A stretch of 64,000 nt of DNA from Escherichia phage PHB12, in the sequence record MK524178.1, one strand, 5' to 3'. Within the stretch, counting starts at the first letter, position 1; each line of letters opens with the position of its first letter. Of this stretch, positions 1,053 to 58,089 are shown piece after piece. A program made the translations under genes and the position numbers. Below the pieces are notes generated by a model, which saw nothing but the letters and a program-made list of their open reading frames with translations, was not told where the DNA came from and did no database searches.

Positions 1053-2868
1053 AGGACATCCATTCTTTACGAAGTTCTGAATCATCACCCAACAACATTT
1101 CAAAGAGTTCTTTCCAATTTTCAGGAAGTTTAACTACGTCGTACACAGGGTTTTGAATCATTTCACGATATTCTGACTTTTCAAGGGAGCCCAATCCCTT
1201 GATGTATCGAATACTATGCTTAGGCAGTGTATCTTTAGCTTCTTCATACTCAGCTACAGTATAAAACCATTTTTGAGTTTTGCCAATTTGTGCAATAATT
1301 ACAGGCGTTTTAACAAAGCGAATACGTCCTTGTTCAAACAATTCAGGCCAATTACTAAAGAAAGCAAGCAAAGCCGGATAAATACTTCCAAGACCGTCAT
1401 GATCGGCATCGGTCATAATTGCAATATTACGATAGTTCGTATTCTCTGCCTTTTCACCAAGAATAAGACCTGTGATAGCACAGATATCAAAGAGCTCTTT
1501 GTTCTTCATCATATCAGCATATGACATACCCCAGCTATTCATTACCTTACCACGTAATGGGAACCCGCCGTGTAGTTCACGGTCACGAACATCAATGAGA
1601 TAACCAATTGCCGAATCACCTTCTGTTAAAAACAATGTCGTATCTGCATCTTTACCACATTGGTTAGCTTTAATATGCTTATGAACCTTAGCTTTAGTTG
1701 CCTTTTTAGCTGCTTTAGTTTCTGCAGCCTTTTCTGCTGCCAATTTACGAGCTAATGCTGCTTCAACAATAGGCATAATCAAGGCTTCGTTTTTAAGAAG
1801 TGCCTGAGCAATTTTCTTAGTATCTAATTGGATATGATTACGAATATCACCATACGTTGACGTTAAACGTTCTTTAGTCTGAGAATCAAAACGCATGTTG
1901 CTCATGTCTCTAATAAACATCAACATTGTGAGACATTCTTTAACACGAGCTTTAGTGACTTCAATACCCTTATATTTCTTTTTAATACCAGGCAAAAGAT
2001 GTTCGCAGATATCATCCATTACACATTCAACGTGATGACCGCCATTTTTAGTATGGATGTTATTCACATAAGTTAAATGTCGGAAGCCATCTGGTGATGT
2101 TGTGAATGCTATAGAGACTTTATCATTTTCTTGAATGATGTTATCTTCGCCAAATTGTTTAGCAAATCGTTTAAAATTACCATCAACCTTTTTACCATTA
2201 AATGTGAACTTGATATCAGGATAAACGACTGCCAATGTTTGAAGTCGGTCTAAAGTAATATCTAAATAAATTTGAGATAAATTATGCTCTTCAAATGAAG
2301 AGAAATCAGGAGTGAAGATTACTTTAGTGCCTTTACCTTTAGATTTCTTAGAAGACCATGATTTGTTTTCCATTCCGTTTGAACAGTTAACAGTGATTTC
2401 ATTTTCGCCATCTGACGTGATGCCTGTAAACAACGTAGAGAAGATATTAGTTAAACTACTCCCGACGCCGTTCATACCACCAGTCTTACGTTCAGAGTCA
2501 TCGCCAAAGTTACCACCAGCCTTTGGAATAGTCCAGGCTGCTACAGGCCCAGGAATTTGTTCACCTGTTTGGTCGGTAACTAAACCTTGAGGAATACCAC
2601 GCCCGTTATCTTCCACCGAAACTTGATTATTTTTAATTTGCACATCAATTTTATTTGCAAACTTAAATGATGTACGAATAGCTTCATCAACCGAGTTGTC
2701 AATAATCTCATCGATTAATTTAACCAGACCAGGAACATATTCAACTTGTTGATATTTACCAAACAAAAAACGCTCGTGGGCTTCTTTGGCCGAAGAACCA
2801 ATATACATGCCACTACGTTTCTTAATATGTTCTACATCTGACAATACCTTAATTTCATTTTTAATCAT
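1051..2868 (-). CDS. 39: DNA topoisomerase II large (ATPase) subunit, fused 39+60 form
   Basis: 605 aa; N-terminus MIKNEIKVLSDVEHIKKRSGMYIGS and GHKL motif DNGRGIP match T4 gp39; length implies the region that is separate gene 60 in T4 is fused in. Confidence 0.9.
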   Translation of the reverse strand: MIKNEIKVLSDVEHIKKRSGMYIGSSAKEAHERFLFGKYQQVEYVPGLVKLIDEIIDNSVDEAIRTSFKFANKIDVQIKNNQVSVEDNGRGIPQGLVTDQTGEQIPGPVAAWTIPKAGGNFGDDSERKTGGMNGVGSSLTNIFSTLFTGITSDGENEITVNCSNGMENKSWSSKKSKGKGTKVIFTPDFSSFEEHNLSQIYLDITLDRLQTLAVVYPDIKFTFNGKKVDGNFKRFAKQFGEDNIIQENDKVSIAFTTSPDGFRHLTYVNNIHTKNGGHHVECVMDDICEHLLPGIKKKYKGIEVTKARVKECLTMLMFIRDMSNMRFDSQTKERLTSTYGDIRNHIQLDTKKIAQALLKNEALIMPIVEAALARKLAAEKAAETKAAKKATKAKVHKHIKANQCGKDADTTLFLTEGDSAIGYLIDVRDRELHGGFPLRGKVMNSWGMSYADMMKNKELFDICAITGLILGEKAENTNYRNIAIMTDADHDGLGSIYPALLAFFSNWPELFEQGRIRFVKTPVIIAQIGKTQKWFYTVAEYEEAKDTLPKHSIRYIKGLGSLEKSEYREMIQNPVYDVVKLPENWKELFEMLLGDDSELRKEWMS

Positions 2869-14696: not shown

Positions 14697-15356
14697 TTAA
14701 CCTCGATTCATAAATGCATTAAATATTTGGTCATCAACAGAAATTTCTAATTCGACTTCAATTGTTTCAGCCTTTTCTTCAGGTGGTAATTCGTATCCAC
14801 ACACTACAATTTTTTCATCGATATCAAAATATACAGAAGCAATACGATTAATGTTATTTTCGGTTAAGTCTAAATCAACATCAACGTCTTTTTGACCTAC
14901 ACTTAAAGGATAACTAATACGGGTTATTTTATTATCTTTAACAAAGAGTCCACCGACATACTCTGTACTACGTTTGAAGTTTACACGTTTCCGAAATGAA
15001 AGATATGATGCATCTTTACCGTGAGCTCGGCTCATAGGACATAATGAATAGCTAGAATAAGAGATGTCAAATCCTACACCTTCAATATGAGCCAACGCGT
15101 CATGATTAAACCAATTATAATCATATGCCAAATCCATTATATTGTAATATGTGAAAGGCACCGGATTAACATCGTACGTTGTACCTTTAAAATCTGCCCA
15201 GGCAACGATTTCGTTATCTTTAACAATTACAAAAATTACACCAATATGGTATCCGTTATTATTTTCATTCGGCGTTATATTATAACATTGTGCATTAGGA
15301 AATTTACCATATTTAAACGGCGCATTTTTGTGCATATAATAAATCATATTATTCAC
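14697..15356 (-). CDS. hypothetical protein (61.2 position)
   Basis: 219-aa ORF. Confidence 0.45.
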   Translation of the reverse strand: MNNMIYYMHKNAPFKYGKFPNAQCYNITPNENNNGYHIGVIFVIVKDNEIVAWADFKGTTYDVNPVPFTYYNIMDLAYDYNWFNHDALAHIEGVGFDISYSSYSLCPMSRAHGKDASYLSFRKRVNFKRSTEYVGGLFVKDNKITRISYPLSVGQKDVDVDLDLTENNINRIASVYFDIDEKIVVCGYELPPEEKAETIEVELEISVDDQIFNAFMNRG

Positions 15357-15642
15357 CTGTGATTTCGGTTACGATATCTTTGTTATCGAAATTAGGGTCA
15401 CAATACAAAACATAATTGTACTGCATGATACCACCAGACTTAAGTTGTTCAACAACTTTATTAACCATATTAGGACGGTCTCGTTTAGTGATGTTCATGA
15501 TATCAGAGAAGATTTGTTGTTCAACATCTTCTTGATTTGCAGTCATTGACCACTCACAGAGGTCTTTATCATAACCTGCCGTAACTGGAGCTGGTGCACA
15601 TGATACTGCAAGTAAGATTGCTGCCAATGATAACTTTTTCAT
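15349..15642 (-). CDS. sp: spackle periplasmic protein
   Basis: 97 aa with signal peptide; GYDKDLCEWSMTA...SGG.MQYNYVLYCD matches T4 Sp. Confidence 0.75.
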   Translation of the reverse strand: MKKLSLAAILLAVSCAPAPVTAGYDKDLCEWSMTANQEDVEQQIFSDIMNITKRDRPNMVNKVVEQLKSGGIMQYNYVLYCDPNFDNKDIVTEITGE

Positions 15643-16015: not shown

Positions 16016-16384
16016 TTAATTAAATTTGTTTAAACGTTCAATACACTGGACGTAGTTATTCGCAATTTGTTTCTGGGTAGGCTCTTTACCAGTTGTTTCA
16101 ACATGGCGAATGAATGCGATTTCAGTAGCCTGTAGACAATGTTCTTTAACGCGTTGTTCTTTTGACAATGCTACAGTATCAGAATCACGATAACGTTGAG
16201 CATGAGCATCAGCTTGAATCATTCGATTGCCTACAGTAACCGGGTCTTCCACTTCAACTTTAGGTTGGTCGTACTGTTTAACATTCGGATTGTAAATCAG
16301 TTGGCCAACGTTATTAGGGATAAAGCCATGGGCACCACATCCAGTTAATCCAAATATCATTGTTAAAGCGATTAATTTTTTCAT
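16016..16384 (-). CDS. lipoprotein
   Basis: Signal peptide with lipobox LTGC (MKKLIALTMIFGLTGCGA). Confidence 0.5.
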   Translation of the reverse strand: MKKLIALTMIFGLTGCGAHGFIPNNVGQLIYNPNVKQYDQPKVEVEDPVTVGNRMIQADAHAQRYRDSDTVALSKEQRVKEHCLQATEIAFIRHVETTGKEPTQKQIANNYVQCIERLNKFN

Positions 16385-56019: not shown

Positions 56020-56237
56020 GTCACCTTTAAGCAGTATTCTTCTACATGTTGTTTACGACCTTTCTTATCAATAAAGGTATATTCAACGAATGTTCCAATG
56101 TAGTCTTTATCTACATCATGTGGACTATTAATTGGGCATTTAGTACGACAAATGCGTTCCCATTGACGAATAATTACTGCCTTATTCTTTGGGTCGTATG
56201 GATGTGGATAATGTATATTCATAATAATGGTTCCCAA
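56010..56237 (-). CDS. hypothetical protein
   Basis: 75-aa ORF. Confidence 0.35.
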   Translation of the reverse strand: MGTIIMNIHYPHPYDPKNKAVIIRQWERICRTKCPINSPHDVDKDYIGTFVEYTFIDKKGRKQHVEEYCLKVTWL

Positions 56238-56716
56238 TCAACAATCACAATTTCTAGTTTAGTGGAATACGTATCTAAAATCTCTTCGATGACAACCCAG
56301 TTTCCACCACCGATACCTGCACCAATTCTTGGCATATAAATTACAGGCTTTGTTATCTTATTCTTTCCGAATTCATTTAATTCTATTATACAATTCATTA
56401 AAGCAAAGTACTCAAAATTAGGTCCCGGCTCAAACTGTGTATAAAGATTAAAGCAATAAGCTTTATGGGTCTTAAAATATTTTTCATAAACCGAATAAGT
56501 CCCGAGTTTAGACTCGTCTCCGAATTCGGTTTGAAGTTTATCGGCTTCTAAAATTTTTGGATAAGCCTTTGCTAATTGTCCTGCCACACCAGCGCCCATT
56601 GTATGAAAACAATTACACCCATGAGCAATATTATTACCTTTAGAAAACAGGGCGACAATATCGCCCTTGATATAGTTTTTAATCACTTGCTGCAAGTCCT
56701 CTAGTATAAGAGTCAA
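56219..56716 (-). CDS. macro-domain protein (ADP-ribose binding/hydrolase fold)
   Basis: 165 aa; GCNCFHTMGAGVAGQLAKAYP and PRIGAGIGGGNW resemble the two macro-domain glycine-rich motifs. Confidence 0.55.
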   Translation of the reverse strand: MTLILEDLQQVIKNYIKGDIVALFSKGNNIAHGCNCFHTMGAGVAGQLAKAYPKILEADKLQTEFGDESKLGTYSVYEKYFKTHKAYCFNLYTQFEPGPNFEYFALMNCIIELNEFGKNKITKPVIYMPRIGAGIGGGNWVVIEEILDTYSTKLEIVIVDWEPLL

Positions 56717-57026
56717 CTAGACGGTCCACCATAGAATTGCATGCTGCCTTATCTTTAGGTTCCGCCACCGAGCATTCTAATATTTGCCATTTTTTATGAT
56801 ATCGTTTAATTAAGGTAGACGCCTTGAACCTACTAGACGCCCCATCTTTTTCTCCGTCTTTATATGCGTATAACAATTTTTGTGAAAAATCTACTTTACA
56901 CTCTTGACTTTTACCACAATAATCAGATGCCGTTCTGTTTGTATACTCCGTTACATCAGTATATGTAGTATTAGCAAGAGCGTTAAATGAAACCAAGCCA
57001 ACTATTAAAGCCAACATTTTGGTCAT
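56679..57026 (-). CDS. secreted protein
   Basis: 115 aa with N-terminal signal peptide; four Cys. Confidence 0.4.
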   Translation of the reverse strand: MTKMLALIVGLVSFNALANTTYTDVTEYTNRTASDYCGKSQECKVDFSQKLLYAYKDGEKDGASSRFKASTLIKRYHKKWQILECSVAEPKDKAACNSMVDRLVDSYTRGLAASD

Positions 57027-57565
57027 TCTTTTATTTCCAGTAGTTTATTTGATTTAAGGTAATTAGCCTTTTCTAGGACTTCAGAAGCATATTTACTTCC
57101 AGCACTTGTCTTCCATCCCGCATTATATGAGGATATAGCTTTTCTTATATCCCCGTTATGTATATTTAACCAATAAGAAAATTCGATATAAGCCCATCTG
57201 GCTGAATTAGACCGCTTAGATAGCATTTTCTTAATTTGGGCATCAGTCATATTATAACCAAGCTGGTTAATTCTTGCCCTCATTGTCGGTAGATAATTTT
57301 GGAACATTCCATACGCATGGTGACCTTTCTTATCTTTAAGATTAATACCGGCAGATGATTCCTGCCATAGTATTGCGGCCATTATGTATCCAAGTCCTTT
57401 CTTATGCATATTTTCATGCGTTTTAAATTTTCCATCCTTAGAAAACTGTTCCCCAAACTGATAAGCATAATTCAAGTTATCGAGTTGGACATTACTAAAA
57501 GTATGCTCGGAGCTATGTGCTGATAACGAAAGAGCAAATAGACCAGCGAGTAGTGCTTTTCTCAT
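57023..57565 (-). CDS. secreted lytic-transglycosylase-like protein (SLT domain)
   Basis: Signal peptide MRKALLAGLFALSLSA; WQESS, AYGMFQ, SSYNAGW motifs. Confidence 0.55.
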   Translation of the reverse strand: MRKALLAGLFALSLSAHSSEHTFSNVQLDNLNYAYQFGEQFSKDGKFKTHENMHKKGLGYIMAAILWQESSAGINLKDKKGHHAYGMFQNYLPTMRARINQLGYNMTDAQIKKMLSKRSNSARWAYIEFSYWLNIHNGDIRKAISSYNAGWKTSAGSKYASEVLEKANYLKSNKLLEIKE

Positions 57566-57573
57566 GTTTACCT

Positions 57574-58032
57574 CTAGATTTTAATCACTGCTTTAGAAGC
57601 TTTTCCTGGTAGTCGTTTATTGTTAATAATAGCCATTCTGCATTGAAGAGTCTTCATTTTGAATGCTGGATTTTCACGACAAACTGTAAGTCCTAACCAA
57701 AGATTTCCATCAGTTATTTCTAAACGGCCTGGGCGATATTCGACACCTTCGACAAAATCTTCATCAACATCTGGACGGGCCGGCATTGATAAAAATTCTG
57801 CAACTTCTTTAACATGATTTTTTACTTTACGAAATAATTCAAAAACGTAGTTCTCATCTATTTCTCTCTGGATGGCACGATCTAAGAGATGTTGAGAATA
57901 CTTGATATGAAAGCCTGGTAGTCCAAGAGACTTTGCAGCATCTTTTATACCGGCATTTATTTTGCGGAACTCCGTTTCAAAGATTCGACGGAGTTTATTA
58001 CGGCGGATAAAAACGTCTGAATTGATAGTCAT
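57574..58032 (-). CDS. regB: endoribonuclease RegB
   Basis: 152 aa; FIRRNKLRR.FE.EFR.IN, YSQHLLDRAIQREIDE, GRLEITDGNLWLG match T4 RegB. Confidence 0.85.
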   Translation of the reverse strand: MTINSDVFIRRNKLRRIFETEFRKINAGIKDAAKSLGLPGFHIKYSQHLLDRAIQREIDENYVFELFRKVKNHVKEVAEFLSMPARPDVDEDFVEGVEYRPGRLEITDGNLWLGLTVCRENPAFKMKTLQCRMAIINNKRLPGKASKAVIKI

Positions 58033-58060
58033 TTTGATTTCTCCTCTAGTTGACAGGTCT

Positions 58061-58089
58061 ATAGTAACACAACTAGAGGAGAAGTAAAC
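58061..58089 (-). promoter_or_regulatory. early promoter for regB (GTTTAC / TACTAT) nested in 12-bp inverted repeat
   Basis: Arms ctcctctagttg (58041-58052) and caactagaggag (58070-58081); downstream arm holds the RBS GAGGAG. Confidence 0.55.

Follow-up and report, generated by a model that had tools for sequence, protein, structure and literature searches.

Two neighbouring genes of Escherichia phage PHB12 are orthologs of T4 vs.1 and vs, and they lie in a packed early unit that runs regB, vs.1, vs, tk.4. Taken as a whole, we consider it fairly probable that the first gene encodes an exported GH23 lytic transglycosylase and that the second most likely encodes an exported protein too. The genes come from a window of 64,000 nt (the whole stretch of DNA that was analysed; sequence record MK524178.1) belonging to a Tequatrovirus, a T4-type phage. 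The identification is largely ordinary, as it rediscovers two catalogued T4 genes; the question raised by Vs.1 is one of biology—what role it has beside the tail lysozyme and the endolysin that T4 already carries.

All real genes of the region are carried by the minus strand, and the plus-strand ORFs nearby, which are short and sit inside conserved minus-strand genes, were treated as spurious. A check of the ORFs confirmed that both frames are real. The genes of the unit, in the direction of transcription, and the junction between the two central ones are as follows:

57574 to 58032, minus strand: regB (endoribonuclease), first gene of the unit; Pfam REGB_T4, E 5.2e-69
57023 to 57565, minus strand: vs.1 ortholog; 180-aa precursor, putative periplasmic peptidoglycan glycosidase of the SLT/GH23 fold
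57023 to 57026, minus strand: ATGA, overlap of the vs.1 stop with the vs start, read from the sequence
56679 to 57026, minus strand: vs ortholog; 115-aa precursor of a predicted exported four-helix protein with four invariant cysteines, annotated as valyl-tRNA synthetase modifier
56219 to 56686, minus strand: tk.4 ortholog (macro domain), directly downstream of vs; Pfam Macro, E 4.6e-5

The 1.9-kb stretch around vs.1 and vs has 98.7% DNA identity to Escherichia phages AV111 and APCEc01 and to many other Tequatrovirus records, and the gene order is identical to that of T4. The 180-aa ORF is 83% identical to T4 Vs.1 over 178 residues and matches phrog_600 ("unknown function", E 3.7e-67, residues 1-178); the 115-aa ORF is 67% identical to T4 Vs and matches phrog_1256 ("valyl tRNA synthetase modifier", E 1.8e-35). 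Full-length matches and gene position thus place the two proteins in the T4 Vs.1 family (phrog_600) and the T4 Vs family (phrog_1256, PF26829), the latter with relatives that carry a precomputed PF26829 match. T4 Vs.1 (T4p112, UniProt P13311, Y06E_BPT4) has the same length, signal peptide and motifs and the same place between regB and vs, and the two putative enzymes appear to be only sequence drift apart. T4 Vs (T4p111, UniProt P13310) is likewise 115 aa long, with the same four cysteines, the same SMVDRLVDSYxRGL block and the same place after vs.1, and shows no structural difference. The original prediction had put both ORFs upstream of regB; they are indeed close to it (8 nt separate the regB stop from the vs.1 start in the junction sequence), but in the direction of transcription they lie downstream.

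The start of the tk.4 ortholog deserves a separate remark—GTG at 56686 is the likely start, giving 155 aa as in T4 (where tk.4 is 468 nt long) and an overlap of 8 nt with the vs stop, whereas the mechanical ORF listing begins at TTG 56716 (56219..56716, minus strand).

The case for Vs.1 as a peptidoglycan enzyme begins with its motifs, which are present as originally described, as are the four cysteines of the 115-aa ORF:

57353 to 57367, minus strand: WQESS motif, containing the GAA codon of Glu69 (57359 to 57361), the predicted catalytic acid/base, invariant in 35 sequences
57299 to 57316, minus strand: AYGMFQ motif (GLMQ-type, as in family 1 lytic transglycosylases), aligned to ASGLMQ of Slt70; G86 and Q89 invariant
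57113 to 57127, minus strand: YNAGW motif (AYNxG-type); Y147, N148 and G150 invariant

In an alignment of 35 Vs.1 sequences that reaches down to 39% identity, eight residues are invariant: E69, S71, G86, Q89, Y147, N148, G150 and Y159. The original prediction would have been undone by a catalytic Glu that varies among relatives, and E69 does not vary. This Glu is followed at position 70 by Ser in PHB12 and by Ser or Thr in relatives, and the GLMQ-type and AYNxG-type motifs both lie downstream of it. The Pfam SLT model (PF01464) scores Vs.1 at 18.8 bits, below the gathering threshold of 21.3 (E 0.0013), and matches 32 of the 35 close relatives at E<=0.01 (best 1.3e-7), several of which have a precomputed PF01464 match; a search of NCBIfam returned no match. 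Alignment with E. coli Slt70 by hhalign sets WQES on RQES and GMFQ on GLMQ, although this single-sequence alignment is not significant; the RQES of Slt70 holds its catalytic Glu478 (mature Slt70 numbering). The reading of the 180-aa ORF as a bearer of a lytic-transglycosylase signature is right, but the SLT-like nature of vs.1 is already known, having been described in print by 2006 at the latest. A match to SLT was reported for vs.1 in six of six T4-like genomes, with earlier PSI-BLAST results cited there (Nolan et al. 2006, PMC1524935), and several GenBank and UniRef records of vs.1 orthologs are already named SLT-domain protein, with "transglycosylase SLT domain-containing protein" as the product name in many GenBank entries.

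The AlphaFold model of Vs.1 is confident (pLDDT 90.2) and has the all-helical catalytic fold of lysozyme-like enzymes; the first 20 residues are modelled poorly (pLDDT 64-67), as expected for a signal peptide. Foldseek searches with the model gave weak E-values (best 0.016); MltF and P. aeruginosa Slt were the best matches, and Slt70 ranked high as well. Single-sequence searches of the PDB gave nothing useful for either Vs.1 or Vs, and the 35-sequence Vs.1 profile found chance-level matches only among PDB sequences (goose lysozyme, E 1.3). A word-indexed protein search yielded 128 relatives at E <= 0.001, in T4-like phages of Enterobacterales, Acinetobacter and Aeromonas, and tblastn placed the family in 2060 phage records that extend as far as Vibrio phages and Ackermannviridae. 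Taken together, the sequence points to Vs.1 as a minimal protein of the GH23 fold that is exported and keeps its active-site signature intact, and we regard its predicted fold and export as highly probable.

Export was judged for both proteins by one explicit home-made rule, a heuristic, applied to every ATG-initiated ORF of at least 60 aa in the window. The predicted Sec signal peptides are:

57512 to 57565, minus strand: vs.1 codons 1-18, MRKALLAGLFALSLSAHS, with SEH following the predicted cleavage site; n/h/c-region layout
56973 to 57026, minus strand: vs codons 1-18, MTKMLALIVGLVSFNALA, with NTTY following the predicted cleavage site; n/h/c-region layout

Both N-termini have the type I layout: one or two K/R come first, followed by a hydrophobic stretch of 10-15 residues and then by a small-x-small site close to residue 18. 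By this heuristic Vs.1 and Vs both rank as soluble periplasmic proteins exported by Sec. Of the 118 minus-strand ORFs in the window, only four pass the rule (vs.1, vs, the Spackle ortholog and an ORF with an LTGC sequence); since these include the known periplasmic Spackle ortholog, the rule is selective and recovers a true positive. The Spackle ortholog itself lies at 15349..15642 (minus strand; phrog_1586, E 3e-42). The LTGC ORF (16016..16384, minus strand) encodes an uncharacterised 122-aa protein with a lipobox-like N-terminus that belongs to phrog_1754, of unknown function. As for other kinds of N-terminus, a lipoprotein was rejected for Vs.1 and Vs for want of a lipobox and of a Cys at the cleavage site, and the hydrophobic cores (about 13 residues in Vs.1 and about 15 in Vs) are too short for a SAR or transmembrane anchor, which also led us to reject a SAR endolysin.

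The relatives of both proteins share this layout, in keeping with the claim that the two ORFs encode secreted proteins. It was found in 34 of 35 Vs.1 relatives—the exception, P0118, is called with a longer N-terminal extension, which puts the layout some 30 residues from the start—and in every one of the 36 full-length Vs sequences among the 37 aligned (P0158 has no N-terminus). The segment is less conserved than the rest: mean identity in the Vs.1 family is 0.31 in residues 1-18 and 0.55 elsewhere, and in the Vs family identity is 0.38 in the signal segment and 0.51 elsewhere, the N-terminal segment diverging faster. The predicted mature N-terminus is NTTYTDVTEYTNR for PHB12 Vs, DTSYTEIR for T4 Vs and SEHTFSNVQLDNMR for T4 Vs.1. 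The Ackermannviridae relative of Vs.1 also has a signal peptide together with the same motifs. Export of either protein is what these N-termini predict.

Vs.1 would thus be made as a 180-aa precursor and exported by Sec, with cleavage of the signal peptide at about residue 18. This would yield a basic mature protein of about 18.7 kDa, presumably of lysozyme-like GH23 (SLT) fold, that cleaves the MurNAc-beta-1,4-GlcNAc bond of peptidoglycan in the periplasm and relies on Glu69 as its only acid/base. The likeliest reaction is that of a lytic transglycosylase, whose products would end in 1,6-anhydroMurNAc. We rate this putative chemistry as somewhat better than an even bet. A hydrolytic GH23 enzyme, either a goose-type lysozyme or a chitinase-like glycosidase, would be the nearest substitute, and seems improbable: the E-S...G-x-x-Q...Y-N-x-G set found in Vs.1 reportedly defines family 1 lytic transglycosylases, the best structural matches are transglycosylases (MltF and P. 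aeruginosa Slt, then Slt70), and the 35-sequence alignment has no conserved acidic residue after GMFQ, the stretch to which the second catalytic Asp of goose lysozyme presumably corresponds. Vs.1 might instead be a catalytically silent binder of peptidoglycan, one that could compete with host transglycosylases or with a superinfecting phage's lysozyme, or serve as a decoy for either. Such a role would suit the marginal SLT sequence similarity and the literature, where we found no report of muralytic activity or of a phenotype for any Vs.1 protein; however, Glu69 and all the signature residues show no variation among the 35 sequences, even at identities as low as 39%, and are found again in the Ackermannviridae relative, which is the pattern expected of an active site and not of a scaffold that only binds. 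We therefore think a silent Vs.1 very improbable.

As a lytic transglycosylase, Vs.1 would be an accessory enzyme made early, and one for local remodelling or loosening of the sacculus rather than for cell lysis, because its level from early mRNA is modest and the gene is dispensable. Candidate purposes are preparation of the wall for lysis, alteration of the wall met by superinfecting phages, and release of muropeptides. Remodelling of the wall at injection, which had also been proposed, has to be dropped for the parental phage: Vs.1 is made only after injection and so cannot help it.

The closest known enzymes are the family 1 lytic transglycosylases (GH23)—E. coli Slt70, MltC and MltE, P. 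aeruginosa MltF, Slt and MltD, and EtgA of type III secretion systems (T3SS). Vs.1 differs from phage virion and endolysin transglycosylases (phiKZ gp144, T7 gp16, lambda R), and from T4 e and gp5, in having its own signal peptide, early expression and dispensability, and to our knowledge it is not a component of the T4 virion. T4 gene e and gp5 encode GH24 enzymes, unlike Vs.1, and a T4-type endolysin or virion lysozyme was rejected as a candidate, as Vs.1 has neither the T4-lysozyme fold nor the Glu-Asp-Thr catalytic set. In the HIDEN-SEQ transposon study, insertions in gene e are strongly under-represented and gp5 tolerates none.

Turning to Vs, its family appears from the searches to be confined to T4-like phages. 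An exhaustive HMMER search of 1.84 billion representatives returned seven matches, all of them orthologs or fragments except one marginal hit to a low-complexity repeat protein (E 9.6e-4); a profile search found 41 proteins, and tblastn 795 phage records. The alignment of 37 sequences shows little or no variation in a central KDG block and in the SMVDRLVDSYxRGL block at the C-terminus. The four cysteines are invariant in all 37; together with the predicted signal-peptide layout, this agrees with the original description of a 115-aa secreted protein with four cysteines. T4-like phages of Acinetobacter have a much diverged form (hhalign E 1.3e-5) that keeps the same four cysteines and the signal peptide and overlaps the vs.1 stop by 1 nt. 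The AF2 model is a confident four-helix bundle (pLDDT 87; helices 20-37, 41-64, 69-85 and 90-114) that leaves residues 1-19 unstructured and outside the fold (pLDDT about 50). In this model the cysteines sit at helix ends, with C37 and C43 bracketing the first helix hairpin and C85 and C96 the second, and each pair would staple its hairpin as a disulfide; the exported protein would then be an 11-kDa four-helix bundle.

These features—signal peptide, four invariant cysteines and adjacency to vs.1—fit an envelope protein and are in tension with the role under which Vs is known. In PMC8076793, Vs is catalogued as binding the host's cytoplasmic valyl-tRNA synthetase (ValRS), with Mueller and Marchin 1975/1977 cited, and the HIDEN-SEQ preprint likewise cites Vs as a modifier of that enzyme. 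Binding to ValRS would need a cytoplasmic location. The protein would then be a cytoplasmic polypeptide, Marchin's tau factor, whose N-terminus is unused or inefficiently used for export; its four cysteines would bind metal, the position of vs would reflect dense packing, and Vs.1 would act alone in the periplasm.

Several observations speak for a cytoplasmic Vs. Every annotated record and the PHROG entry name the family valyl-tRNA synthetase modifier, and secondary sources trace ValRS binding to Mueller and Marchin 1975/1977; the four cysteines, lying at one end of the bundle, could hold Zn rather than form disulfides; and growth in M9 glucose specifically depletes vs mutants of T4, which suits aminoacylation under amino-acid limitation. 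Furthermore, vs.1 is present without vs in phages of Aeromonas and in Ackermannviridae, so Vs.1 does not need Vs. Against these stand the canonical signal-peptide layout in 36 of 36 full-length relatives despite the faster divergence of that segment, the exclusion of residues 1-19 from the modelled fold, and the four invariant cysteines, a feature typical of proteins in oxidising compartments. The full-length T4 protein, carrying a His tag, was insoluble in the E. coli cytoplasm (PMC8076793), as expected from an uncleaved signal peptide and unformed disulfides, but this behaviour is not specific.

Mass gives a further hint. The predicted mature Vs is 11.0 kDa and the precursor 12.8-13.1 kDa, and the tau factor has a mass of roughly 10 kDa; the mature form fits better, which would imply processing and argues against a protein that stays in the cytoplasm. 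On the signal-peptide layout of 36 full-length members and the four invariant cysteines (a heuristic rule and not a localisation experiment), we judge export of Vs to be likely, and a purely cytoplasmic Vs to be rather unlikely. A protein that looks exported and disulfide-bonded, and whose gene is so tightly joined to vs.1, does not sit easily with binding of a cytoplasmic aminoacyl-tRNA synthetase, and localisation of Vs would either clean up or overturn the old annotation.

Expression and insertion data are available for T4. Both vs and vs.1 belong to the early transcript class and the middle protein class, and both proteins were detected by MS (PMC9697503 supplement). Both genes are non-essential in the HIDEN-SEQ study, with insertions about ten-fold under-represented in LB relative to neighbours (Extended Data Table 6, sheet S8): reads per site are 26.6 for vs and 22.6 for vs.1 against 290 for tk.4, 179 for regB and 652 for vs.3. 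In M9 glucose the log2FC is -2.19 for vs (adjusted p reported as 0) and -0.87 for vs.1, the latter not significant (p 0.0055, adjusted p 0.155), with -0.07 for tk.4, -0.06 for vs.3 and +1.17 for regB; the authors confirmed the vs phenotype in M9 with a deletion. The shared insertion behaviour of vs and vs.1 may mean that the two genes serve one function, or just that vs.1 insertions are polar on the coupled vs. A role of Vs in translation would likewise suit its minimal-medium phenotype.

If Vs is exported, it could be more than a neighbour of Vs.1. We entertain, as a doubtful proposal, that Vs, instead of modifying ValRS in the cytoplasm or in addition to doing so, is an exported, disulfide-stapled partner of periplasmic Vs.1—a regulator, inhibitor or targeting subunit. 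Were this true, T4-like phages of Enterobacterales and Acinetobacter would share a conserved envelope module made up of Vs.1 and Vs and coupled in translation, and the 50-year-old label of valyl-tRNA synthetase modifier would stem from a mis-assigned vs mutation or describe a secondary association. The ATGA overlap makes translational coupling of vs.1 and vs likely, and at all 31 loci examined the distance from the vs.1 stop to the vs start is between -8 and +3 nt; however, adjacency alone is weak evidence of joint function, because tight packing is the general rule among T4 early genes (regB and vs.1 are 8 nt apart, and vs and tk.4 overlap by 8 nt).

One pattern in the insertion data fits an antidote-like relation, in that loss of vs alone is worse in M9 than insertion in vs.1, which probably removes both functions (log2FC -2.19 against -0.87, the latter with adjusted p 0.155 and not significant); partial polarity of vs.1 insertions on vs explains the pattern equally well. 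A simple toxin-antidote pair was set aside, as the under-representation in LB of vs.1 insertions themselves argues against its simplest version. A working partnership of Vs and Vs.1 is thus a tentative, minority possibility. T4 Spackle (gp61.3) suggests, by analogy, a role that an exported Vs might have—Spackle is a small early protein with a Sec signal peptide that acts in the periplasm on a muralytic enzyme, reportedly by inhibiting the gp5 tail lysozyme of a superinfecting phage.

The start of the unit has its own control-like element:

58039 to 58089, minus strand: early-promoter-like GTTTAC-17 nt-TACTAT with a hairpin that pairs the regB Shine-Dalgarno GGAG (promoter by eye, hairpin by folding)

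The GTTTAC box lies at 58089..58084 and the TACTAT box at 58066..58061, 17 nt apart. The 14-bp hairpin (58083..58039; -21.6 kcal/mol, z -4.4) pairs the regB SD GGAG with its 5' arm and holds the -10 box in its loop, so transcripts from this promoter would leave the SD free, whereas transcripts reading through from vs.3 would hide it. T4 has the same promoter and hairpin layout upstream of regB with different arm sequences. A generic scan for consensus sigma-70 promoters listed none before regB, and the T4-type GTTTAC/TACTAT pair was found by eye.

Two vs.1 homologs are annotated with internal start codons. The vs.1 homolog of Shigella phage Ag3 (L007 1399..2013) is annotated from an internal start at 1624 and so loses the signal peptide and the catalytic WRES motif, both of which the full ORF carries. 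That of Aeromonas phage SW69-9 (L006, about 1430..1983) is annotated from an internal start at 1564 and loses its signal peptide; here too the full ORF keeps signal peptide and motif. Names have drifted as well—several vs.1 orthologs bear a name that belongs to the neighbouring gene ("endoribonuclease", "RegB" or "site-specific RNA endonuclease"), and several Vs orthologs are called "valyl-tRNA synthetase", as though they were that enzyme.

In Acinetobacter phage Mokit (L005 1438..3305), vs.1, the diverged vs, two small proteins (141 and 99 aa) and the antiholin gene rI stand in a row. The 141- and 99-aa proteins have signal-peptide or membrane-anchor N-termini, and on its predicted products the run from vs.1 to rI reads as a cluster of envelope-directed early genes.
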